64,000 nt of DNA, from sequence record MH051914, one strand, 5' to 3'. Positions 3,603-64,000 of this stretch are shown piece by piece. Under the pieces are notes generated by a model. That model made no database searches, was not told the origin of the DNA, and saw nothing but the letters and a program-made list of their open reading frames with translations. The translations under genes were made by a program, and so were the position numbers. Numbering within the stretch: position 1 is the first letter of the stretch; every line of letters starts with the position of its first letter. Source of the DNA: Enterobacteria phage vB_EcoM_IME338.

Positions 3603-4502
3603 ATGGCTAAAGCAGAACTTGATAAATACTACACACCTGACGAAGTAATAAGGGTGTGTGAAGATAAGCTACAAAAGGTCTTTAAAGGCTCTATTTCGTG
3701 CATTATAGACCCCTGTGCAGGTGACGGAAGATGGAAAGATTCTTTTAAGAGGGTTTGTCAAGATGTTGTGCTATACGACATCGAACCAGACTCTGAAGAT
3801 GTTAGTACAAGAGACTTCCTGAAAGATGACTTAGAGATTCCAGATAAACCTTTTGCGATTGTTACCAACCCTCCATTTGGTAAGGCAAATAGTCTGTCTA
3901 CAAAGTTCTTTAACAAGGCTGCTACAATGAATCCAGACTACATTTGCTTCTTAGTTCCCATTAACTTTGGGAAGAAGAATCTTAGCAGACTTAGCAGAGA
4001 GTACACCTGCATTGATGAAGTAGAACTACCTAACCTTCATTTTGAAAGGATTGATGGAGTTACCTACTCAGCAAAAGAATCATCACTACGCTGTAACTTC
4101 CAAATCTGGAAGAGACAAAAACGGACAGATAAAATTTGTAAGATTGTCCCTGTGATAGTTGATGGCGTAAGAGTTTATAAGCGTGAGAAATTCACACTAT
4201 ACAGGCCACCATGTCACAAGATTGATGGTAAAGAGCAGCCAGTAGGTGTTTTAGGTAAACTGGATGGAAAAGATTTGTTCACGATTATTACACATGGTCG
4301 TAAGGCTGGCACTGTGAAGGTTTTTGAACCAGATAAAGATAAGGTGTCAGTGAAACAGTTTATCGAACCACACGTAGAGGGTCTTTACTCAGCAATCAAA
4401 CAAGAATGGTTTAATGATTTGAGAGATGGTTTTGCACTGAGTCATGCAGGTTCTATCAACTCACAAGAAATTATAAATACTTTAGAAAAACACTTGCATT
4501 AA
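3603..4502 (+). CDS. N6-adenine DNA methyltransferase, gamma-class (TaqI/Eco57I-like), orphan
   Basis: motif X YYTPDEV, motif I DPCAGDG (SAM binding), motif IV TNPPFG in gamma-class order; no adjacent restriction enzyme. Confidence 0.75.
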   Translation: MAKAELDKYYTPDEVIRVCEDKLQKVFKGSISCIIDPCAGDGRWKDSFKRVCQDVVLYDIEPDSEDVSTRDFLKDDLEIPDKPFAIVTNPPFGKANSLSTKFFNKAATMNPDYICFLVPINFGKKNLSRLSREYTCIDEVELPNLHFERIDGVTYSAKESSLRCNFQIWKRQKRTDKICKIVPVIVDGVRVYKREKFTLYRPPCHKIDGKEQPVGVLGKLDGKDLFTIITHGRKAGTVKVFEPDKDKVSVKQFIEPHVEGLYSAIKQEWFNDLRDGFALSHAGSINSQEIINTLEKHLH

Positions 4503-24632: not shown

Positions 24633-25004
24633 ATGAAAAACAGAACAAACAAAGGCCAGTTTAAAAAAGGCCAGTCTGGAAACCCATCTGGAAGACCAAA
24701 AGGCTCTCGTAACAAAAGCTCACTCGTAAAAGCTCAACTGACCATTGATAATTCTGCTGAGTTCGCTGCAAAGCTGTTTGAGGCGATTGTTACAAGGGAC
24801 GCGGCTAAGCTTGCAGAGTTCGGTTTGACGACTGACGATGTAAACCTGAAGTCAATGATGGAAGCTGGTAAAACTATCATGACCCACTCAGCAGGTGAGA
24901 TGAAAGCAATTGCAGCAGACACTAAGAAGACTCCTGATAATGGTGGTCAACAACAGACAGATAACAAACCAACGTTCTCTGCTGTAGCGACTCTCAAAAA
25001 ATAA
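24633..25004 (+). CDS. hypothetical protein with basic N-terminal GNPSGRPKG motif
   Basis: 123-aa ORF, AAGAGG RBS. Confidence 0.5.
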   Translation: MKNRTNKGQFKKGQSGNPSGRPKGSRNKSSLVKAQLTIDNSAEFAAKLFEAIVTRDAAKLAEFGLTTDDVNLKSMMEAGKTIMTHSAGEMKAIAADTKKTPDNGGQQQTDNKPTFSAVATLKK

Positions 25005-25015
25005 TTTTAAAAGGT

Positions 25016-25045
25016 GTTGACAGACTCTACAAAGTTGCTCTAAAG
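25016..25045 (+). promoter_or_regulatory. sigma70-like promoter upstream of Ro60-like gene
   Basis: TTGACA-N18-TAAAGT. Confidence 0.5.
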
Positions 25046-25085
25046 TCTGTCACATCAAACAACAAATGAGAGAAGAGAGTAAAAT

Positions 25086-26501
25086 ATGAGCGAGTTATTT
25101 AAACATGCGCACCTTCATGCAGGTCGAACTGAAAATGGTGCTGTAAACCATACTTCATCAATGTCTGCTCTGGTAGACTTCTACAAAGCCGCTGGCTCAA
25201 GCCGTAGCAATGTAGAAATCTTACCAGACCTGTTCTACAAAGCTTTGCGTGAGGATGTTGATGTTGCAGTTCGTATTTTACTGCATATGCGAGATGTAAG
25301 AGAAGGTATGGGTGAGCGTAAAGCTTTCCGAACTGTTTTACTTCAAGCGATTGAAGATAAGGTTTTAGAGCCTACACAGGTTCTTCGCATTATGGATAAG
25401 ATTGCAGAACTTGGTCGTTTTGATGACTTCAAAATCTTCGTAGGTACTCGTTTTGAGACAGATGCCTTCAAACATTTAGAATCAGCATTACTAGACCCTG
25501 CAACAGCAGGTTTAGCAGCTAAGTGGTTGCCACGAGTAAAACCACGCCACAAACAGTTTGTAAAACGTTTCTGCAAGTTTGCAAACTTAAGTGAGAAGGA
25601 GTATCGCACACTGTTGTCTGCACTATCTGATACGGTTGAGCAAAAAATCTCTGCTAATAAGTTTGGTAAGATTGACTACAGCAAGATTCCTTCACTCGCT
25701 GCTGCACGTTACCAAAAGCTCTTTAACCGTAAAGATGGGGAACGTTACAAAGCTTACATCGAGTCCCTCTCAAAAGGTGAGGCTAAGATTAACGCTGGTG
25801 CTGTTTACCCATACGATGTGATTAAATCTATCAAGTATGGTAATGCAGATGTTGCTAATGAGCAGTGGAAAGCACTACCAAACTGGATGGCAGAGGGTGA
25901 AAACATCTTGTGTATGACTGATGTTTCAAGCTCAATGTCTTGGGTGAATCTTGGTTCAATCACTGCCCTTGATATTGGTGTATCACTTGCCTTGTATGTA
26001 GCAGAACGCAATACAGGTTGCTTTAAAGATGAGTTAATGGTCTATTCAACAAACCCTCATTTCATTGAACTGAGTGGTGATTTACGAAACCGTCATCGTC
26101 AGGTAATGCGTCATGTTGAATATGGTTCAACTAACTTACAAGCAGCTTTTGACCGTATTCTTGAGGTAGGTAAGAGAAACAACTTGACTCAGAAAGATAT
26201 GCCAAGTAAGCTTATCATCTTCTCCGATATGGAGTTCAATCAGGTTGATGGAGCAAATGGTCGTACAAACTTTGAAGCAATTCAGAGTAAGTACAAAAAA
26301 GCTGGATACGAAATGCCACAACTAGTATTCTGGTACTTAGCAAACCGTAATGGGACTTGCGAAGTATCTGTTAAGGATAATGGTGTAGCAATGGTATCAG
26401 GGTTCTCTCCAGCCACTTTAAAAGCTCTGCTTGGTGGTGAGAAGTTTGACCCAATCAGCGTAATGCTCAAAGCAGTAATGATTGACCGTTACATCTGGTA
26501 A
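25086..26501 (+). CDS. rsr: Ro60/Rsr-like protein (C-terminal vWA with MIDAS; TROVE-like N-terminus)
   Basis: MIDAS DVSSSMS...T...D; C-terminal blocks IIFSDMEF and NRNGTCEVSVKDNGVAMVSGFSPATLKAL align with recalled human Ro60 vWA region; helical N-terminal region. Confidence 0.65.
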   Translation: MSELFKHAHLHAGRTENGAVNHTSSMSALVDFYKAAGSSRSNVEILPDLFYKALREDVDVAVRILLHMRDVREGMGERKAFRTVLLQAIEDKVLEPTQVLRIMDKIAELGRFDDFKIFVGTRFETDAFKHLESALLDPATAGLAAKWLPRVKPRHKQFVKRFCKFANLSEKEYRTLLSALSDTVEQKISANKFGKIDYSKIPSLAAARYQKLFNRKDGERYKAYIESLSKGEAKINAGAVYPYDVIKSIKYGNADVANEQWKALPNWMAEGENILCMTDVSSSMSWVNLGSITALDIGVSLALYVAERNTGCFKDELMVYSTNPHFIELSGDLRNRHRQVMRHVEYGSTNLQAAFDRILEVGKRNNLTQKDMPSKLIIFSDMEFNQVDGANGRTNFEAIQSKYKKAGYEMPQLVFWYLANRNGTCEVSVKDNGVAMVSGFSPATLKALLGGEKFDPISVMLKAVMIDRYIW

Positions 26502-26519: not shown

Positions 26520-26548
26520 TTGACAACGTGTTTGATACCCTTTAATAT
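26520..26548 (+). promoter_or_regulatory. sigma70-like promoter (tRNA/ncRNA array), overlapped by palindrome GGGTAT...ATACCC
   Basis: TTGACA-N17-TAATAT. Confidence 0.6.
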
Positions 26549-26610: not shown

Positions 26611-26640
26611 TTGACAACCACTAAAAAATAATGTTAAAGT
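26611..26640 (+). promoter_or_regulatory. second sigma70-like promoter for tRNA array
   Basis: TTGACA-N17/18-TAAAGT. Confidence 0.55.
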
Positions 26641-26666: not shown

Positions 26667-26743
26667 CTCTGTTTAGCTCAGCTTGGTAGAGCGTTCCGTT
26701 TGGGGCGGTAAGGCCGGAGGTTCAAGTCCTCCAACAGAGACCA
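26667..26743 (+). tRNA. tRNA-Pro (anticodon TGG)
   Basis: manual cloverleaf: acceptor CTCTGTT/AACAGAG, anticodon loop TTTGGGG, T-arm GGAGG-TTCAAGT-CCTCC, CCA encoded. Confidence 0.75.
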
Positions 26744-26750
26744 AATTAAT

Positions 26751-26828
26751 GTTCCAGTAGACAAAATGGTATAGTCACCACTCTTTCAAAGTGGATATTT
26801 GAGGGTTCAAATCCCTTCTGGAACGCCA
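26751..26828 (+). tRNA. tRNA-Glu (anticodon TTC)
   Basis: acceptor GTTCCAG/CTGGAAC, anticodon arm CCACT-CTTTCAA-AGTGG, CCA encoded. Confidence 0.75.
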
Positions 26829-26835
26829 GTTTTGA

Positions 26836-26908
26836 CAGAAGACCAATTACAGCAAACTTAATCTTATTCATCTGACACGAAATCGGACAAAGAAGAGATT
26901 TGGTCTGG
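26836..26908 (+). ncRNA. Y-RNA-like structured element E1
   Basis: 5' CAGAAGACCAATTACAGCAA ... 3' TTGGTCTGG; terminal helix AGACCAA/TTGGTCT. Confidence 0.4.
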
Positions 26909-26919
26909 TCATTAAGAAT

Positions 26920-26996
26920 TGCGGGTATAGAGAAAGGGCGTCTCACATGTCTCATTAGCATGGTATCGGCAGGTTCGACTCCTGCACCCGCCTCCA
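26920..26996 (+). tRNA. tRNA-Met-like (anticodon CAT), atypical acceptor/D junction
   Basis: D-arm GAGA/TCTC, anticodon arm CATGT-CTCATTA-GCATG, T-arm GCAGG-TTCGACT-CCTGC; acceptor pairs only with a 3-nt connector or 1-72 mismatch. Confidence 0.5.
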
Positions 26997-27002
26997 ATTT
27001 TG

Positions 27003-27062
27003 CAGAAGACCGTATGCAGCAATAAACTACTTTTTGCGGATAAAAGAAAAAACACGGTCTGG
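27003..27062 (+). ncRNA. Y-RNA-like structured element E2
   Basis: 5' CAGAAGACCGTATGCAGCAA ... 3' ACGGTCTGG; helix AGACCGT/ACGGTCT (compensatory vs E1). Confidence 0.4.
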
Positions 27063-27073
27063 CAACCTATTAA

Positions 27074-27147
27074 GGTTAGGAAGCACATGAGGTATGTGCG
27101 GTCGCCTGTTAAGCGAATGGCACAGGGTTCGAATCCCTGACTAACCG
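27074..27147 (+). tRNA. tRNA-Asn (anticodon GTT)
   Basis: D-arm GCAC/GTGC, anticodon loop CTGTTAA, T-arm CAGGG-TTCGAAT-CCCTG. Confidence 0.75.
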
Positions 27148-27159
27148 CAAAATTTAAAT

Positions 27160-27247
27160 GTGTCGTTATCCCGTAGATGGTAGCGGTGGGGACTGTAAAT
27201 CCCTTGTCATTGAGACTCGGTAGGTTCGACTCCTACACGGCACACCA
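27160..27247 (+). tRNA. tRNA-Tyr (anticodon GTA), class II
   Basis: acceptor GTGTCGT/ACGGCAC, anticodon arm GGGGA-CTGTAAA-TCCCT, long variable arm, T-arm GTAGG-TTCGACT-CCTAC, CCA. Confidence 0.75.
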
Positions 27248-27308
27248 ATTTTGAGAGGGCTATTTAGCCCCTCCCTTAAAGGGTTCTTACGAGTATTCTT
27301 TAAAGGAG

Positions 27309-27382
27309 CAGAAGACCAAATACAGCAAGTTATTTAAAATTTCAAGCCAATTTAATTTTGAAAAATTTAAAACTTGGTCTGG
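27309..27382 (+). ncRNA. Y-RNA-like structured element E3
   Basis: 5' CAGAAGACCAAATACAGCAA ... 3' TTGGTCTGG. Confidence 0.4.
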
Positions 27383-27395
27383 CTCAACAAATTTA

Positions 27396-27526
27396 CAGAA
27401 AACCGTTTACAGCAAAACTTAAACAATCTATTTCTCGGTAAAGAAAAGGCGAAGGTTCGATTCCTTCACTCGGCAGATGTCGAGTTGGTGTAATGGTAGC
27501 ACTTAAGATGATAAACAACGGTCTGG
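27396..27526 (+). ncRNA. YrlA-like RNA candidate: terminal helix enclosing a permuted tRNA-like module
   Basis: ends CAGAAAACCGTTTACAGCAA / AACGGTCTGG; internal T-arm GAAGG-TTCGATT-CCTTC, closed acceptor-like hairpin ACTCGGC-AGAT-GTCGAGT, D-arm GTGT-AATGGTA-GCAC. Confidence 0.5.
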
Positions 27527-27529
27527 TAA

Positions 27530-27669
27530 TTATCTTTGTAGATAAGTTATTAAGCTTACCTGTGAGTATGCGACCACAAAGGGTGAAAGGGTAAATTCTA
27601 GATTTAAACCCAACAAGGCACATCGCTACAGACCTTAAGCAAGTCTGGGTAGCTTATCTACAAAGATAA
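27530..27669 (+). ncRNA. structured RNA candidate with perfect 17-bp terminal stem
   Basis: TTATCTTTGTAGATAAG pairs with CTTATCTACAAAGATAA about 105 nt away; inner bulged hairpin CTACAGAC/GTCTGGGTAG. Confidence 0.4.
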
Positions 27670-27675
27670 TTTAAT

Positions 27676-27751
27676 GGAAGTGTAGCAGAATGGTGATGCG
27701 GCAGACTTTTAATCTGACAGGCGATGGGTTCGAATCCCTCCACTTCTACCA
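27676..27751 (+). tRNA. tRNA-Lys (anticodon TTT)
   Basis: acceptor GGAAGTG/CACTTCT, anticodon loop CTTTTAA, T-loop TTCGAAT; T-stem only 3 G-C pairs. Confidence 0.6.
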
Positions 27752-27755
27752 ATAT

Positions 27756-27832
27756 GGTTCAGTCGCAGATAAGGTAATGCAGGGGTCTCATAAGCCCTAT
27801 GAATGTGGGTTCGATTCCCATCTGAACCTCCA
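27756..27832 (+). tRNA. tRNA-Met (anticodon CAT; initiator/elongator/Ile2 not resolved)
   Basis: acceptor GGTTCAG/CTGAACC, anticodon arm GGGGT-CTCATAA-GCCCT, T-arm GTGGG-TTCGATT-CCCAT. Confidence 0.7.
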
Positions 27833-27834
27833 AT

Positions 27835-27910
27835 GCTGTGAAAGCACATATGGATGTGCATTCGGCTGATAACCGAAAGGCAGAAGGTTCGAATCCTTCT
27901 CACAGTACCA
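27835..27910 (+). tRNA. tRNA-Ile (anticodon GAT)
   Basis: canonical: D GCAC/GTGC, anticodon arm TTCGG-CTGATAA-CCGAA, T-arm GAAGG-TTCGAAT-CCTTC, CCA. Confidence 0.85.
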
Positions 27911-27925
27911 ATTTCAATAAAGTTG

Positions 27926-27954
27926 TTGACATTGATGTGTGACTACTTTATAGT
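27926..27954 (+). promoter_or_regulatory. internal sigma70-like promoter within tRNA region
   Basis: TTGACA-N17-TATAGT. Confidence 0.55.
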
Positions 27955-28157
27955 AACCTTAGTTTTCGTTGCGTAGCGTCTATTTTGCAAATCTAAAATA
28001 AATGCAAACGACAATGTTTTTCTGGCAGTAGCTTGATAGGCTAAACACCAGTGAGGTCTTCCAATCCCTCATCAAAGAATTTGGCGTACTCGCCCACGGT
28101 ATGATTAATAAGGTGGGCATCTTTAAGGGCTTTCTAAGAGAGTCTTTAAAGATTAAT

Positions 28158-28234
28158 GCACCCTTAGTTCAACTGGACAGAACAAATGACTTCTAATCAT
28201 TAGGTTACAGGTTCGAATCCTGTAGGGTGTGCCA
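28158..28234 (+). tRNA. tRNA-Arg (anticodon TCT)
   Basis: D GTTC/GAAC, anticodon arm AATGA-CTTCTAA-TCATT, T-arm ACAGG-TTCGAAT-CCTGT, CCA. Confidence 0.8.
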
Positions 28235-28376
28235 AATAGTTAGCAGATTGCTTAGACGACCTTATCGGGTCTCCGTGTAAGGAGGTGGTCTGTATCTCAT
28301 GTTTTCCAGAACATGTAAATAATCTGAGAAGGGGCTTTACAGTGTTGTGAAAATACGGTAAGCTTCGAATTATAGT

Positions 28377-28459
28377 GTGGGACGATGTTAAGACTCTAAG
28401 GCATGAGCAACGGCTTCCAACACCGTTTCAAAGGGGTTCAACTCCTCCGTCCCATGCCA
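28377..28459 (+). tRNA. tRNA-Trp-like (anticodon CCA) with 7-nt insertion between acceptor stem and D-arm
   Basis: acceptor GTGGGAC/GTCCCAT + CCA; D ACTC-TAAGGCAT-GAGC; anticodon arm AACGG(C)-TTCCAAC-(A)CCGTT with 31-39 mismatch; T-loop TTCAACT; 9-nt connector instead of 2. Confidence 0.45.
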
Positions 28460-28472
28460 AAGTCTTATTAGG

Positions 28473-28560
28473 GGTAGGTAGCGGCTAATGGTAGCCAAAC
28501 TGTCTTGAAAACAGTTGCCACTGTAGAGATACGGTGAGGGTTCGACTCCTTTACTTACCG
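28473..28560 (+). tRNA. tRNA-Ser (anticodon TGA), class II
   Basis: acceptor GGTAGGT/ACTTACC, anticodon arm ACTGT-CTTGAAA-ACAGT, variable arm stem CTGTA/TACGG, T-loop TTCGACT. Confidence 0.7.
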
Positions 28561-28817
28561 CCTAATAAGATTTAAAGCCAAGCTTCATTCGGATGTTGCT
28601 TTGGTATCCCTCGTGTATTGTCGTACACCCTGATAAAGCACCTAGTAGGTGTCACGGAGAAGAGATAATATCAAGCTCTCCAAAGGTTCTAGTCACCGGA
28701 TTGAACAAGACTATGCAAAGACCAATTTAGGTCTTTTTAGAGGGCTTCTAAGGTTATTACAGCTTGTTGTGGAACCTTGTTGCTTAGGTTCTTAGAAGTT
28801 CTCTAAAAAGATTTAAT

Positions 28818-28894
28818 GCACCTATAGCCCAACTGGTAGAGGCAGCAGACTTAGAATCTGCTCAGTGTGAGTTCGAATCTCTCTAGGTGTACCA
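28818..28894 (+). tRNA. tRNA with anticodon TAG (Leu by anticodon) but short variable arm
   Basis: acceptor GCACCTA/TAGGTGT, anticodon arm GCAGA-CTTAGAA-TCTGC, T-loop TTCGAAT, A73, CCA. Confidence 0.6.
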
Positions 28895-28901
28895 AATTAA
28901 T

Positions 28902-28977
28902 GCAGGTGTAGCAAAATGGTTATGCGGCTGACTCTTAATCAGTAAGACGATGGGTTCAATTCCCTCCACCTGTACCA
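28902..28977 (+). tRNA. tRNA-Lys (anticodon CTT)
   Basis: paralog of Lys-TTT gene; anticodon loop CTCTTAA; CCA. Confidence 0.6.
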
Positions 28978-28983
28978 AACATT

Positions 28984-29059
28984 GGGGTCATAGTTTATAT
29001 GGTTAAAATTCGAGTTTTGCAAACTTGGGAACTGAGTTCAATTCTCAGTGACTCCACCA
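28984..29059 (+). tRNA. tRNA-Ala (anticodon TGC)
   Basis: acceptor GGGGTCA/TGACTCC with G3-U70 identity pair, anticodon loop TTTGCAA, T-arm CTGAG-TTCAATT-CTCAG, CCA. Confidence 0.8.
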
Positions 29060-29065
29060 ATTAGT

Positions 29066-29140
29066 GCATCCATAGTTTAAACGGGAAAATTACAGTCTTC
29101 CAAACTGAGGTTGAGGGTTCGATTCCCTCTGGATGCTCCA
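29066..29140 (+). tRNA. tRNA-Gly (anticodon TCC)
   Basis: acceptor GCATCCA/TGGATGC, anticodon loop CTTCCAA, T-arm GAGGG-TTCGATT-CCCTC, CCA. Confidence 0.75.
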
Positions 29141-29147
29141 AATTAAT

Positions 29148-29224
29148 GCTGCTTTCGTATAATTGGCTATTACACATCCCTTGTAAGGATGGAAATGCAG
29201 GTTCGAGTCCTGTGAGCAGCACCA
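29148..29224 (+). tRNA. tRNA-Thr (anticodon TGT)
   Basis: anticodon arm CATCC-CTTGTAA-GGATG, T-arm GCAGG-TTCGAGT-CCTGT, CCA. Confidence 0.75.
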
Positions 29225-29227
29225 ATT

Positions 29228-29319
29228 CAGAGGTCAAGTGAAAGACCGCTGGTGTCAACTGAAGACCGTAACAAATTCCACGGAGTTGAGTTAGCGGCAC
29301 AACTTCAGACCTCTTTCAT
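29228..29319 (+). ncRNA. structured element E6 with two GAAGACC-type motifs
   Basis: CAGAGGTC...GACCTCTTTCAT terminal pairing; internal GTGAAAGACCGC and CTGAAGACCGTAACAAA. Confidence 0.3.
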
Positions 29320-29394
29320 ACTCGCTTAGTTTATATGGTAAAACACCACCCTTACAAGATGAAGAAAAAGGTTCAAGTCCTTTAGTGAGTACCA
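29320..29394 (+). tRNA. tRNA-Val-like (anticodon TAC) with weak anticodon stem; possible pseudo-tRNA
   Basis: good acceptor, D-arm GTTT/AAAC, T-arm AAAGG-TTCAAGT-CCTTT; anticodon loop CTTACAA but stem CCACC/GATGA has 3 of 5 pairs. Confidence 0.45.
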
Positions 29395-29395
29395 T

Positions 29396-29474
29396 GTTCC
29401 AGTATCCCAATTGGCAGAGAGGCCAGACTTAAAATCTGTGTTATGTATCGGTTCGAATCCGATATGGAGTACCA
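29396..29474 (+). tRNA. tRNA-Leu-like (anticodon TAA), atypical 5' half
   Basis: T-arm ATCGG-TTCGAAT-CCGAT, anticodon loop CTTAAAA, acceptor GTTCCAG/ATGGAGT with two G-U pairs; D-arm pairing ambiguous. Confidence 0.45.
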
Positions 29475-29479
29475 AATTT

Positions 29480-29555
29480 AGCGGTATAGCATAACTGGCA
29501 ATGCAACAGTCTCTGAAGCTGTCTTATTAAGGTTCAAATCCTTATGCCGCTGCCA
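29480..29555 (+). tRNA. tRNA-Gln (anticodon CTG)
   Basis: D GCAT/ATGC, anticodon arm ACAGT-CTCTGAA-GCTGT, T-arm TAAGG-TTCAAAT-CCTTA, CCA. Confidence 0.75.
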
Positions 29556-29586
29556 CTTCTAAGGATTCTTACGAGAGTCCTTAAAT

Positions 29587-29662
29587 GTGGCCTTATCATA
29601 AATGGTAATAACCCATGCTGTGAACATGGTCTATACGGGTTCAAATCCCGTAGGTCACCCCA
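29587..29662 (+). tRNA. tRNA-His (anticodon GTG)
   Basis: anticodon arm CCATG-CTGTGAA-CATGG, T-arm ACGGG-TTCAAAT-CCCGT, C73, CCA; no encoded G-1. Confidence 0.7.
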
Positions 29663-29667
29663 ATTTA

Positions 29668-29744
29668 TAGTCCAAGTAGCTTATATGGTTAAAGCGCGTG
29701 TCTGAAAAACATGAGAAGAGGGTTCAAATCCCACTGGACTACCA
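29668..29744 (+). tRNA. tRNA-Phe-like (anticodon GAA), 4-nt acceptor/D connector
   Basis: perfect acceptor TAGTCCA/TGGACTA, D GCTT/AAGC, anticodon arm CGTGT-CTGAAAA-ACATG, T-loop TTCAAAT. Confidence 0.55.
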
Positions 29745-29760
29745 ATTTCAAAGGTGCTTA

Positions 29761-30495
29761 ATGAAAGAGATGACAGAACAAGGTAAGGAGATTTTTAATC
29801 TCTTAAAAACCGGTAGAGGGTTTTCTAATCCCCTTATTACTGGTGCAGCAGTTCTCGGTGGAACCGTAGCTGCCTCTACATCACTTATAAGCTCTATTAG
29901 CTCTGTAACAGACCCTACAATAAAGGATAAACTTGTTGCTGCTGGACTGACAACAGTTCTGCTTAACAGCTTTACAACGAGCCTGACAAGCACTACATCA
30001 ACCACTAAGACATTGACAGACTACGGTCAAAAGTCTATTGATGAGTTTTCATCACGTATGCAGGTAGCAAAAGGCTATTCTAATGTTATGGGTGCAGCAG
30101 GAGAGCAAGTTGGTTGTACACCATTTAGTGGTATTATGGGTGTTGCTACAGAGTATGGTCAAAAAGCTATTGACACAATTAACAGTGCACTAGATGGTGT
30201 TAATGATGTATTAAGCGACTTACAAGATGCTATTGATAAAGGTCTTGATACTATTTCTGATTTAGCTAACCAAGCTGTTAGCAAGATTAATGAAGGTATC
30301 TCAAAGATTACAGCTTATGCAGATGAAGTTGTGCAGATGATTGAAGAAGAAGCTGCCCTTATTGCAGAGTACCTTAAAACGAATATCAATGGGTTCTTAG
30401 CAGGTATCTTACCAGACTGGTTTGACGATGCTTGTAAAACTGGTGTAATTGATACTATTGCAACACCAGAAATGAAGAACGCATTACAGAAATAA
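29761..30495 (+). CDS. hypothetical Ser/Thr/Ala-rich protein embedded in tRNA array
   Basis: start reset to ATG 29761 with AAAGGTG RBS; track start 29698 would overlap tRNA-Phe-like gene. Confidence 0.5.
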   Translation: MKEMTEQGKEIFNLLKTGRGFSNPLITGAAVLGGTVAASTSLISSISSVTDPTIKDKLVAAGLTTVLLNSFTTSLTSTTSTTKTLTDYGQKSIDEFSSRMQVAKGYSNVMGAAGEQVGCTPFSGIMGVATEYGQKAIDTINSALDGVNDVLSDLQDAIDKGLDTISDLANQAVSKINEGISKITAYADEVVQMIEEEAALIAEYLKTNINGFLAGILPDWFDDACKTGVIDTIATPEMKNALQK

Positions 30496-30496
30496 T

Positions 30497-30589
30497 GGAA
30501 GATTAACCCTAAAAGGTAAGGGAGCAGTTTGCTAAACTGCCAGTAGCTGAGAAATCGGTGTACCAGTTCAAGTCTGGTATCTTCCTCCA
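30497..30589 (+). tRNA. tRNA-Ser (anticodon GCT), class II
   Basis: acceptor GGAAGAT/ATCTTCC, anticodon arm GCAGT-TTGCTAA-ACTGC, long variable arm, T-arm ACCAG-TTCAAGT-CTGGT, CCA. Confidence 0.75.
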
Positions 30590-30593
30590 ATTT

Positions 30594-30669
30594 GAATCCG
30601 TGACAGAAATGGATATGTGCCTGTCTGCAAAACAGGTTTATAAGGGTTCGAGTCCCTTCGGATTCTCCA
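30594..30669 (+). tRNA. tRNA-Cys (anticodon GCA)
   Basis: acceptor GAATCCG/CGGATTC, anticodon arm CCTGT-CTGCAAA-ACAGG, T-arm AAGGG-TTCGAGT-CCCTT, CCA. Confidence 0.8.
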
Positions 30670-61615: not shown

Positions 61616-61886
61616 ATCTGGTCAATACACTCGCAAGGTGTACCAGTTCTCTTATGAACTTCTCCGCATTTCTACGGAGTGTCGGACTATATCACGTAGC
61701 AGTGATGCTACCGTTGCACTTGGGGATGGTCATTAGCTTACCACCCTACTCTACTCAGTTCATACGTTAAGTATGCTTTTCGATAGTCTCTGAACGTTCC
61801 TCTTAAGAGGCTTCGCTGCTGATTACCATATCTTTCCAGACTTAGGCTTCCAGCAATTCACAACGTTTTACATGCGCCACTGACGC
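61616..61886 (-). other. group I intron interrupting the DNA polymerase gene (boundaries within a few nt)
   Basis: minus-strand RNA carries group I core: P4-like GAAUUGCUGGAAGCC, UAUGGUAAUCAGCAG, P7 strands GUUCAGAGACUA and GAUAUAGUCCGAC; exon 1 frame hits a stop inside. Confidence 0.75.
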
Positions 61887-64000
61887 ATAAATGCCATTTT
61901 TGGCTTTCTTACGACCTTTTGTAATCTCGTGAAGAAGCTCCTCATCCTGCGTCTCCCTACAACGAACAATATCATCTTCCTTGTTTAGACCGAAGTAAAT
62001 ACTATTCAGTGTATGTGCATCAGTACCTGTGTAGACTTCGTAGAGGTCATTCTCAGCATCATAACGAAGATACTTATCAGTTTCTGGATTGAGGTACTTA
62101 TCGAGATGCTTGCAATAGTATCTTCCATCCTCTTGCTTGGTAAATTCTACTGACTCTTTACCTTCAGTTACCGCTTTGGTGAAGTCTTTATCACCCATAA
62201 AGTTACACAGTAAAACAAGCTGTGCAGAGTTCTGGTCAACTGAAACGATATTAGTCCCTTCCTCGCAAATCCACACCTCCCTCATAGGTGCTCCATAGAC
62301 AGCAGCACCAGACGGTACGTTTACAATACCATATTGTGTCATACGTCCAGTTGAAGTACCAAACACCATTGCACCAGCACTAAGGCGACCATCAGGACGA
62401 ATCTGGTTCAACCAACCTTTTTCATCATCCTTTGAGTTCTCAATAGTTCTGCGTCGGTGCATCAAGGTATAGTATTTCGCAATCTTCTGTCCAAGCTCAC
62501 CTTCAATCGTATCATAAGATGATTCAGTAAGTTTTGGTGAAGTACGGATTAAGCAAGGCTCAAGCAAATCTGTGTACTTCTTCACAGACCAGTTATGCTC
62601 AATGTACTGGACACCTTCGTGTTCAACATAACTCAAACCACACCGTTCCACCATCTCATCCCATTTAGGATGCTTTGTAATCATCTTTTTGTTGTCTTTG
62701 AAGCGACAAACCTTAACAGGACGACCATCAGAGTCTTTCTTATAGTTCCAGTCATCTGGAATCCAACCAACTGATTTCAAGTAGTCTTTAACAACTGCTA
62801 CCTGAGTCATACGAGAAACTTCGAACTCAATTGGTGTATATGGTGCATCAATCAAACCTGTGTAGCGACTTGACTCAAGTTCAAAGTGGTTAACAACATG
62901 ACTGTTATAGTACTTCACAGTCTTAACTGTTTTTACTGGCTTCCAGTCTTTGCATTTCTTACCAATCTTTGCATTCAACTCATTGCAAATTGCACGAGCA
63001 TCCTTCATTGCTACAAAGCCTTCCTTGTACTCTTCACCAGTTACCGAGTTGGTTGGTGTATAGCAATTCCGCTTTTCAATGTTAAAAATCTTTGTAGTTG
63101 GCTTACCAAATGGCTTGATTTCATATGTCTGCATCTCACCGTTACGTACCTGTTGACGATACTTTGTCTTAGGGTACTTGGTAATTCTCTTCAGTCCATC
63201 TGCATGACCAAATGCTTCAACATACTCATTCCAAGCTTTTGCAAATTCTTCTCCAGTGACTTTACCTTTGGTCTTAATAGTTGGAGGAAGATGTGGTTCA
63301 ACTTCTGAAGCAAGCTCGTTAGTCAACTTGTCAAGTTCCTTTACATGGAACTCCATAAGCTCTTTATCAGCTTTCCAACCATTGATAGCCTGTTGACTCA
63401 TCCAGAAAGATGTTTCTTTAGCTCGCATGTAGGTTTCATAGGTGTCTACGCCACACTTCTTTAGCTTCAGATATTCATTATCCAATGCACGTTTAGTTTT
63501 GGCGTTAATACGGATATCTTCCACAACACGAGTGAAGATTTCTGCATTCCACACACCCCAATGTTCAATCTCTGGTTTACGGACACCAACACGAGCACCC
63601 CATGCTGCCAAGCCATGAGCACCTTTATAGCCTTTTGGAGTTGGTCTATCCATCCACTGAACACGAGACTGGATAAGAGAATCCTGAAAGAAATTACTCC
63701 ACGGCTTACACTTTGGATTATCAAAGTTCCACAAATCGGGTGCAATGTGATTGAAAACCCACCAGTCATAACCGAGACCGTTATGGATGCAAAGACGTTT
63801 TGCCTTTAACGCAAATTCAACACCTTCACGTAAACCACCCTTAATGTACTTGGTATACTTGTGACCGAGGATAGGTTCATCTGTAAAGACCCATACAGGT
63901 GGCTCTTCATCGTCAGATTTATAGTCTGCGAAAGCCATTACGTGCACTTTAGTGAACTCAAGGAGTAAACCATCAGTTTCTGTATCACCAACTAAATGTA
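61887..64000 (-). CDS. DNA polymerase family A, exon 1 (N-terminal part, runs off window end)
   Basis: Exo I motif DTETDGL in the frame extending past 63947 to the window edge; motif A VSVDQNSAQL; ends inside motif B RKKAKNGIY. Confidence 0.75.

Follow-up and report, generated by a model that had tools for sequence, protein, structure and literature searches.

The window analyzed here is a 64,000-nucleotide (nt) stretch of Enterobacteria phage vB_EcoM_IME338 (sequence record MH051914), a Felixounavirus (Felix-O1-like myovirus), in which a gene for a Ro60-like protein lies upstream of a tRNA array. An earlier note on this DNA, based on the letters alone, had described the gene as Ro60/Rsr-like, with its own promoter and followed on the same strand by two more promoters, tRNAs, and Y-RNA-like elements. 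The open reading frame (ORF; 25086..26501, plus strand, ATG start, 471 amino acids (aa)) was found as described, as were the tRNA cluster (22 tRNA genes, 26667-30669) and the Y-RNA-like elements, which are real and consist of four copies of a bipartite stem (26834-27528), here termed E1-E4. Sigma-70-like sites do occur at the places indicated for the promoters, although they are consensus matches only, and their regional count does not exceed the shuffled expectation. On balance, the divergent Ro60-type protein and the adjacent E1-E4 RNAs probably form a Y-RNA-like ribonucleoprotein (RNP) that acts in counter-defense. The features of the locus are as follows.

25017..25046, plus strand: sigma-70-like promoter candidate before the gene (TTGACA-18-TAAAGT), 10/12 consensus match.
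25086..26501, plus strand: gene for the Ro60-like protein (DUF2828 helical ring plus DUF7788 vWA domain with MIDAS, the adhesion site dependent on metal ions), ATG start, 471 aa, ortholog of Bas63 gp130.
25086..25889, plus strand: N-terminal all-helical region, residues 1-268, the predicted structural equivalent of the Ro60 HEAT/TROVE ring, lacking a sequence-level TROVE signal.
25893..26498, plus strand: C-terminal vWA domain, residues 270-471, a probable remote homolog of the Ro60 vWA domain (Pfam DUF7788, 1.7e-43).
25920..25934, plus strand: MIDAS DxSxS motif (D279-S281-S283), the site being completed by T349 and D381.
26520..26548, plus strand: sigma-70-like promoter candidate 1, 3′ of the gene, within a 12-bp hairpin (consensus scan).
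26611..26640, plus strand: sigma-70-like promoter candidate 2 (extended -10), at the head of the array of tRNAs and Y-like RNAs (consensus scan).
26667..30669, plus strand: 22-tRNA array with E1-E4 embedded (tRNA gene calls).
26834..26910, plus strand: E1, short Y-like element (GAC[AGA]AGACCAA-UUACAGCAAA ... UUGGUCU-G-GUC) in the interval from tRNA-Glu to tRNA-Met; repeat family D11.
27001..27064, plus strand: E2, short Y-like element (UGC[AGA]AGACCGU-AUGCAGCAAU ... ACGGUCU-G-GCA) in the interval from tRNA-Met to tRNA-Asn; covariance model R1, 22.3 bits, E 0.011.
27307..27384, plus strand: E3, short Y-like element (AGC[AGA]AGACCAA-AUACAGCAAG ... UUGGUCU-G-GCU), recognized by fold and repeat.
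27396..27528, plus strand: E4, YrlA-like element with a terminal stem and UUUACAGCAAA around a permuted tRNA-like module; model R1, 37.1 bits, E 4.5e-6, and minimum free energy (MFE) fold.

The 2.8-kb stretch around the gene is 98.7% identical to Salmonella phage BPS17L1, and approximately 250 related records hold most of it. In Pfam, the protein is assigned to DUF2828 (PF11443, 1.8e-29) and DUF7788 (PF25043, 1.7e-43); in PHROGs, phrog_850 ('RNA-binding protein', 1.4e-183) spans its residues 1-471. Homologs were detected by tblastn in 709 phage records, and the hosts of these phages include Escherichia, Salmonella, Vibrio, Listeria, Staphylococcus, Campylobacter, Enterococcus, Bacillus, and Mycobacterium. 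The translation contains each string quoted in the earlier note (DVSSSMS, residues 279-285; IIFSDMEF, residues 377-384; NRNGTCEVSVKDNGVAMVSGFSPATLKAL, residues 420-448), and the N-terminal region it took to be helical corresponds to residues 1-268, predicted to be all-helical. Across a 40-sequence family alignment (A1) extending down to 43% identity, no variation is seen at the MIDAS residues D279, S281, S283, T349, and D381 or at the basic residues R40, R69, R72, R78, R111, K146, and R150 of the helical half.

An AlphaFold2 model computed from A1 (predicted local distance difference test, pLDDT, 89.1; predicted template modeling score, pTM, 0.88) displays a helical-repeat ring closed by a vWA domain, which is the Ro60 architecture, with the MIDAS pattern DxSxS...T...D in place. 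The eight best Foldseek matches in the PDB are all full-length Ro60 (E 9e-8 to 2e-6, TM up to 0.66), with Ro60 matches from Xenopus (2i91/1yvp), human (9nep/9nf8), Deinococcus (Rsr, 2nvo), and Thermus phage phiLo (9kop/9l5y). Isolated vWA domains rank below Ro60 and appear only at E>4e-3; therefore, approximately 200 of the aligned residues stem from the helical ring. The comparison of the predicted structure with Ro60/Rsr, which the earlier note had proposed as a check, thus returned a Ro60-type ring plus vWA domain. Consistent with remote homology, hhalign matched the family to a Ro60 profile (a 22-sequence alignment of Bxz1 gp220 relatives) with 88.6% probability (E 2.6e-6, 190 columns; query 236-446, template 318-537), the aligned region being the vWA domain together with the helix leading into it. 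Ro60 was not found by PDB sequence search with either the single sequence or the 40-sequence profile, NCBIfam gave no match to the window protein, and pairwise BLAST against the canonical phage Ro60, Bxz1 gp220, was not significant. The window protein is Ro60-like in predicted architecture and probably remotely homologous to Ro60 in its vWA half, lies outside the TROVE sequence family, and represents a separate family rather than a Ro60 ortholog. The predicted fold and the probable vWA relationship support the Ro60/Rsr-like character originally put forward; of the two outcomes the earlier note had named as pointing to a generic vWA protein, the TROVE match is indeed missing, but the predicted fold is not unrelated to the Ro60 ring.

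The gene itself is no discovery. The window protein shares 459 of its 471 residues (97%) with gp130 of the Felixounavirus Bas63 (Escherichia phage JohannRWettstein), whose gene order is identical (DUF5681 gene upstream, tRNA array downstream), and the PhageMaP preprint (2024) had already described gp130 as structurally Ro60-like and encoded upstream of tRNAs (PMC11482910). In that study, deletion of gene 130 crippled Bas63 plaque formation on cells carrying ppl, a defense composed of an ATPase and a PHP domain with predicted phosphoesterase action and proposed DNA degradation, and gp130 alone, whether plasmid-borne or inserted into T7, restored T7 growth on ppl cells (PMC11482910). The gene-level interpretation of the earlier note was therefore right, yet already published for this ortholog (PMC11482910) with respect to its Ro60-like fold, position, and anti-defense phenotype. 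Protection against ppl, seen for gp130, is the one phenotype established by experiment, and the part in host RNA decay or tRNA surveillance suggested in the earlier note is a hypothetical one. The preprint authors also speculated that some annotated tRNA genes may be Y RNAs (PMC11482910); the candidates proposed here are, instead, the unannotated inter-tRNA elements E1-E4. The label 'Ro-like RNA binding protein' is likewise carried by gp53 of the cluster-L mycobacteriophage LeBron, which has the DUF2828 and DUF7788 domains of the window protein at 31% identity; no study of RNA partners behind this cluster-L label was found in the literature searched.

What is new at this locus are the candidate partner RNAs E1-E4 and the evidence that they exemplify a widespread DUF2828/CAGCAA-handle variant of the Ro60/Y-RNA system. 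The elements lie on the plus strand, 333-1027 nt 3′ of the gene and between the first tRNAs, and were previously unannotated. Their 5′ halves share CAGAAGACCnnnTRCAGCAA (repeat family D11) and their 3′ halves nnGGTCTGG, and the 700-nt stretch that holds E1-E4 contains every plus-strand GGTCTGG site of the 64-kb window, four in total. In the fold of each copy, a 3-nt AGA bulge separates an outer 3-bp stem from a 7-bp stem, after which UACAGCAA is unpaired; the single-stranded motif after the bulged terminal stem is UWCAGCAAW in every copy, and stem and motif are together referred to as the handle. Compensatory changes set the copies apart (E1 and E3 have CCAA/UUGG, E2 and E4 have CCGU/ACGG), and the outer stem also varies across them (GAC/GUC, UGC/GCA, and AGC/GCU).

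The interiors of E1, E2, and E3 are AU-rich. E4 encloses a T-arm (27451-27467, GAAGG-UUCGAUU-CCUUC), a closed 7-bp acceptor-like hairpin (27468-27485, ACUCGGC-AGAU-GUCGAGU), and a D-arm (~27488-27502, GUGU-AAUGGUA-GCAC). T-arm, closed acceptor, and D-arm follow one another in the circularly permuted tRNA order that defines the bacterial YrlA Y RNAs (Chen et al. 2014), and E4 has this permuted tRNA-like domain both in its MFE fold and in its full-length R1 match. The published Ro60-binding motif is absent from its expected position in E4, where UUUACAGCAAA sits instead. A possible Rsr motif at 27448 (GGCGAAGG) was rejected as part of the E4 T-stem, and an excess of GNCGAAG in the window (21 sites versus 10.7 expected) was dropped as irrelevant, nearly all sites lying in coding DNA. 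Rfam Y_RNA had no match in the window, and no description of E1-E4-type RNAs was found in Rfam 15 or in the literature searched, whose coverage is incomplete. The Bas63 counterpart of E4 lies at L089:22780-22909. Small minus-strand 'hypothetical protein' ORFs overlie E4 in both phages (bas63_0137 and bas63_0138, L089 22749-23023; a 76-aa ORF at 27393-27623 of the window) and are probably annotation artifacts. In Felix-type tRNA arrays, E1-E4 would account for gaps left without annotation and for small ORFs that are probably spurious.

To assess linkage with the gene, 80 further loci were fetched from IMG/VR and 65 non-redundant loci were scanned, the Felix group being counted once. An element was defined as a stem of ≥7 bp with CAGCAA 0-3 nt after it, located ≤1 kb from the gene and outside the coding sequence; a stricter rule (G two bases past the helix) missed true elements, and greedy helix extension moved the register. 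In all, 74 such elements lay on the strand of the gene versus 4 on the opposite strand, while seven control hexamers in the same scan gave 2-16 and 0-4, respectively, and at least one element was present in 43 of the 65 loci. Rfam YrlA itself gave sub-threshold matches on the gene's strand in LeBron (39.8 bits, E 1.7e-6, 125 nt past the stop codon of the homolog) and in Klebsiella phage FBKp34 (39.6 bits, 267 nt past the homolog stop codon and ahead of a tRNA array). Copies of the handle (a stem, then NCAGCAAW) number three in LeBron, all downstream of the gene and one of them the YrlA match, four in FBKp34, and one in Cronobacter phage S13. The same-strand linkage spans mycobacterial siphoviruses, Listeria Herelleviridae, Campylobacter phages, and T4-like phages. 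In bacteria, a Y RNA gene on the same strand within ~4 kb is typical of Ro60-type genes (Chen 2014), and E1-E4 occupy such a position as a variant RNA type.

A covariance model, R1, was built from five non-Felix phages only, including both of those with Rfam YrlA matches, using a five-sequence alignment (A4) with hand-mapped structure; the MAFFT alignments of tRNA-like elements (A2 and A3) were partly misaligned, and A4 was used in their place. R1 ranks E4 first in the 64-kb window as a full-length match (37.1 bits, E 4.5e-6) and also detects E2 (22.3 bits, E 0.011); its second-best window match, at 28857-28938, is a tRNA-Leu/tRNA-Lys junction and was discarded. At E≤0.05, all 65 R1 matches (70 sources) lie on the strand of the gene. 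In the alignment fitted to R1, pairing in the P1 terminal stem reaches 97% and 7/7 pairs show compensatory changes, while the whole structure is 89.8% paired, compared with 60.5% in shuffles and 36-49% when the 3′ partners were slid.

Both the linkage and the covariation bear on the suggestion that E1-E4 are merely features of tRNA arrays (processing or spacer signals, decayed tRNA remnants, or homing-endonuclease scars) whose proximity to the gene is a by-product of a shared tRNA region. In the window, E1-E4 do sit between tRNAs and E4 has arms of tRNA origin; in relatives, the E1-E4 interval holds an HNH endonuclease and an additional tRNA-Asp, and, as the discarded R1 match illustrates, tRNA-tRNA junctions can mimic the permuted order. 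However, 25 of the 43 element-bearing loci, including LeBron and L025 (which has several elements), have no tRNA within 5 kb; therefore, the elements follow the gene, not the tRNAs. Element positions peak within ~500 nt of either gene end, the stems are preserved by compensatory changes, and the invariant CAGCAA is no tRNA feature, so that this explanation is regarded as very improbable.

The handle carries several classes of cargo: AU-rich hairpins of 53-95 nt, YrlA-like tRNA mimics of ~110-155 nt, and large inserts of 240-280 nt. The tRNA mimics occur in two topologies, one with a closed acceptor and open handle and the other with an open acceptor, encoded CCA, and closed handle. The second was observed in Cronobacter phage S13 (L007; 5895-6015 and 6025-6137) and in an Aeromonas-type T4-like contig (L066; 8940-9320) as a circular permutation of the YrlA-like elements, in which the open acceptor stem and encoded CCA are kept and a closed handle, with (U)UCAGCA / C(N)GCAA after it, takes the place of the anticodon arm. 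The S13 'tRNAs' are annotated at 113-121 nt because they are such permuted, handle-bearing, tRNA-shaped RNAs. Given the open acceptor and CCA, the S13 and L066 RNAs could be substrates of tRNA enzymes. Inserts of 240-280 nt were noted at L038 4785-5040, L058 6513-6770, and L029 6463-6729, with further large inserts at L055 4124-4347 / L030 4011-4286 and L070 4643-4906 / L081 4644-4908. They share conserved blocks across unrelated metagenomic phages (e.g., GAUGUAAAAAGAGAUAUAGCUGCCGAGC) and may be unknown structured RNAs within CAGCAA handles.

Comparison with characterized systems reveals a common plan and a different recognition sequence. Like the window protein as predicted here, Ro60/Rsr proteins (Xenopus Ro60, Deinococcus radiodurans Rsr-Yrn1, and Salmonella Typhimurium Rsr-YrlA/YrlB) combine a helical ring with a vWA domain and MIDAS; as for the candidate RNAs of the window, the genes of their partner RNAs lie no more than a few kb away on the same strand, one such RNA has a permuted tRNA-like domain, and a conserved motif directly follows, on the 3′ side, the 5′ strand of the terminal stem (Chen 2014). 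In contrast, the window protein is only 11-16% identical to Ro60/Rsr, is ~60-80 residues shorter, and lacks a TROVE or vWA_Ro60 match, while the RNA motif is UWCAGCAAW rather than GNCGAAN0-1G and Rfam YrlA scores are sub-threshold or absent. In mycobacteriophage Bxz1, canonical gp220 matches TROVE and vWA_Ro60 and also has same-strand Y-like RNAs beside its gene, but these bear GCCGAGAG and GCCGAAGG (the published GNCGAA motif) exactly at the position that CAGCAA occupies in DUF2828 phages. No CAGCAA stems were found near the Bxz1 Ro60 gene, and GNCGAA stems near DUF2828 genes show no strand bias (23 versus 18). Thermus phage phiLo likewise pairs a phage Ro60-fold protein with adjacent phage Y-like RNAs, Yrl1 and Yrl2, which were located via CGAA motifs; its Ro60-Yrl attenuates PNPase, and interference with PNPase was proposed (PMC12135203). 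The phiLo Ro60 is a TROVE-domain protein according to its PDB entry and has CGAA RNAs, whereas the window protein is of the DUF2828 type, with CAGCAA RNAs as its putative partners. In the cases compared, each of the two protein subfamilies goes with its own motif, as would be expected if the motif were the protein's recognition site.

These observations suggest how the favored RNP could operate. The protein, a member of the phage-dominated DUF2828/DUF7788 family (PHROG 850), is predicted to be an alpha-helical repeat ring shut by a vWA domain with an intact MIDAS, and it would form ribonucleoproteins with the E1-E4 RNAs encoded just downstream. We infer that it binds their handle, a bulged terminal helix plus UWCAGCAAW at the position of the GNCGAA Ro60-binding site of canonical Y RNAs. 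E1-E4 would be co-transcribed with the tRNAs and freed by the enzymes that process the flanking tRNAs; such release is proposed because E1 and E2 start 4-6 nt past one tRNA and end 9 nt short of the next, and the flanking tRNAs probably supply processing sites for the elements. By analogy with Rsr-YrlA-PNPase and phiLo Ro60-Yrl-PNPase, the E4 tRNA mimic could, more speculatively, tether or decoy host enzymes that recognize tRNA or degrade RNA, and the net effect would be to shield the infection from host defense.

Several results weigh against the RNP interpretation. The Pfam TROVE model (PF05731), named as a check in the earlier note, and the vWA_Ro60 model did not match the window protein even at E≤1, although Bxz1 gp220 as positive control scored 9.4e-50 and 4e-54, respectively. 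The N-terminal halves alone gave an hhalign probability of 0.3% (E 0.22), negative in local, low-mact, and global modes with shallow profiles (Neff ~2.9; deeper ones might yet reveal similarity), and because this half lacks profile similarity to Ro60, the resemblance of the ring rests on predicted structure. On the RNA side, Rfam YrlA (RF02553, gathering threshold 69 bits) found no window match at threshold or at E≤10, even when the 166 nt around E4 were scanned, and the LeBron and FBKp34 matches are also below the gathering score; the covariation alignment, being fitted to the R1 model, is biased toward structure; and 22 of the 65 loci have no element by the simple criterion. The main counter-evidence comes from the ortholog: gp130 suffices in T7 without the phage RNAs, and therefore the anti-ppl activity does not obviously need E1-E4; these RNAs may have a different role, act as regulators of the protein, or have substitutes among host RNAs.

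This last point is the core of a protein-only explanation, in which the MIDAS would bind and block a host defense protein such as ppl, the ring would be an inherited scaffold without an RNA role, and the RNA elements would be unrelated or would regulate expression only. MIDAS sites classically bind protein ligands. In the family of the window protein, the MIDAS residues are invariant and a TROVE sequence signal is missing, both in keeping with a protein-only inhibitor, as is the rescue of T7 on ppl cells by gp130 alone (PMC11482910). Such an inhibitor would not, however, account for the tight same-strand linkage of an RNA element to the gene in distant phage groups, for the motif switch relative to canonical Ro60 in the Bxz1 and phiLo comparisons, or for the many invariant Arg/Lys residues of the helical half, and it is considered unlikely.

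The genes next to DUF2828 homologs offer no consistent protein partner among those considered (NAD-salvage genes, Metallophos, Rnl1, RtcB, and homing endonucleases). They nevertheless relate to a further possibility, that the RNP is an RNA-repair platform that, as in the Salmonella rsr-yrlBA-rtcBA operon, hands tRNAs of phage or host, once damaged, to ligases and end-healing enzymes and so undoes cleavage by host anticodon nucleases. In Listeria phage P100 (L005), an RtcB-type 'tRNA splicing ligase' and an HD phosphohydrolase are encoded just downstream of the homolog, an arrangement shared with the Salmonella rsr-rtcBA operon; at one metagenomic locus, an Rnl1 ligase and an AAA_33 kinase are encoded ~6.5 kb away; and ROT/TROVE proteins of jumbo phages have been discussed as repair platforms (PMC7824862). 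Yet repair genes are inconsistent as neighbors and none is adjacent in the window, and ppl, the sole validated target, has predicted PHP phosphoesterase action with proposed DNA degradation (PMC11482910). A repair role for the complex is accordingly judged very unlikely.

Relative to these alternatives, the counter-defense RNP of protein and E1-E4 remains the preferred reading, and it gives a validated counter-defense protein concrete candidate RNA ligands, making the gp130 mechanism directly testable. In its broader form, which is put forward more tentatively and is somewhat less probable than its alternatives taken together, DUF2828 proteins and CAGCAA-stem RNAs might constitute a distinct phage-wide RNP system that parallels Ro60/Y RNA, with one protein-binding handle on interchangeable modules (short hairpins, tRNA mimics in two permuted topologies, and 240-280-nt RNAs) that would act as decoys or tethers for host enzymes and defenses directed at tRNA and RNA, and with Bas63 gp130/ppl as its first validated case. 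The DUF2828 family, which occurs in at least 709 phage genomes and escapes the TROVE model, regularly comes with its own class of Y-like RNAs and a putative recognition motif unlike that of canonical Ro60, and the Ro60/Y-RNA principle of a protein ring with modular, tRNA-mimicking RNAs would extend to a large part of the phage world.

Additional observations were made at the loci examined. A ROOL RNA match that falls just short of the gathering score of 99.1 (86 bits, E 6e-16) was seen in P100, 1 kb upstream of the DUF2828 gene, with three CAGCAA-handle elements after it (coordinates listed for the locus: 2426-2977 and 3611-3893); the P100 record annotates the neighboring tRNAs on the strand opposite to that given by Rfam. 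In two unrelated phages (L004, i.e., FBKp34, 1-2658; L090, 3875-6493), the DUF2828 gene is immediately preceded by NAD-salvage genes (NAPRTase/NAMPT-like plus PRPP synthetase), which may represent another counter-defense cluster, directed against NAD-depleting systems. In the window, the gene directly upstream of, and co-oriented with, the Ro60-like gene encodes a 123-aa DUF5681 protein (RefSeq name; 24633-25004, plus strand) with a very basic N-terminus (MKNRTNKGQFKKGQSGNPSGRPKGSRNK), and the two genes are syntenic in the Felix-like records examined (SLAM_phiST56 and Bas63).

Further along the tRNA array, within 27926-28157 of the window (plus strand), the strongest promoter-like site of the region (TTGACA-17-TATAGT, 11/12) precedes a weak Rfam tmRNA match at 27968-28157 (15.2 bits, E 0.0055). 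Here, a tmRNA-tag-like frame at 28003-28038 (GCA AAC GAC AAT GTT TTT CTG GCA GTA GCT TGA TAG) encodes ANDNVFLAVA followed by two stop codons and is kept in 15 Felix-like loci with synonymous changes (GAC to GAT, TGA to TAA) and one V-to-A substitution. ARAGORN called no tmRNA, and the locus may be a degenerate or split tmRNA-like gene. An unannotated tRNA-like sequence at 28378-28466 (plus strand), for which neither ARAGORN nor Rfam made a call, has an acceptor stem (TGGGACG/CGTCCCA), a T-arm, and a 3′ GCCA and lacks a normal D-arm or anticodon arm. Finally, a group I intron (Rfam RF00028) was detected at 61662-61945 on the minus strand, matching the full-length model with 62.2 bits, above the gathering score.

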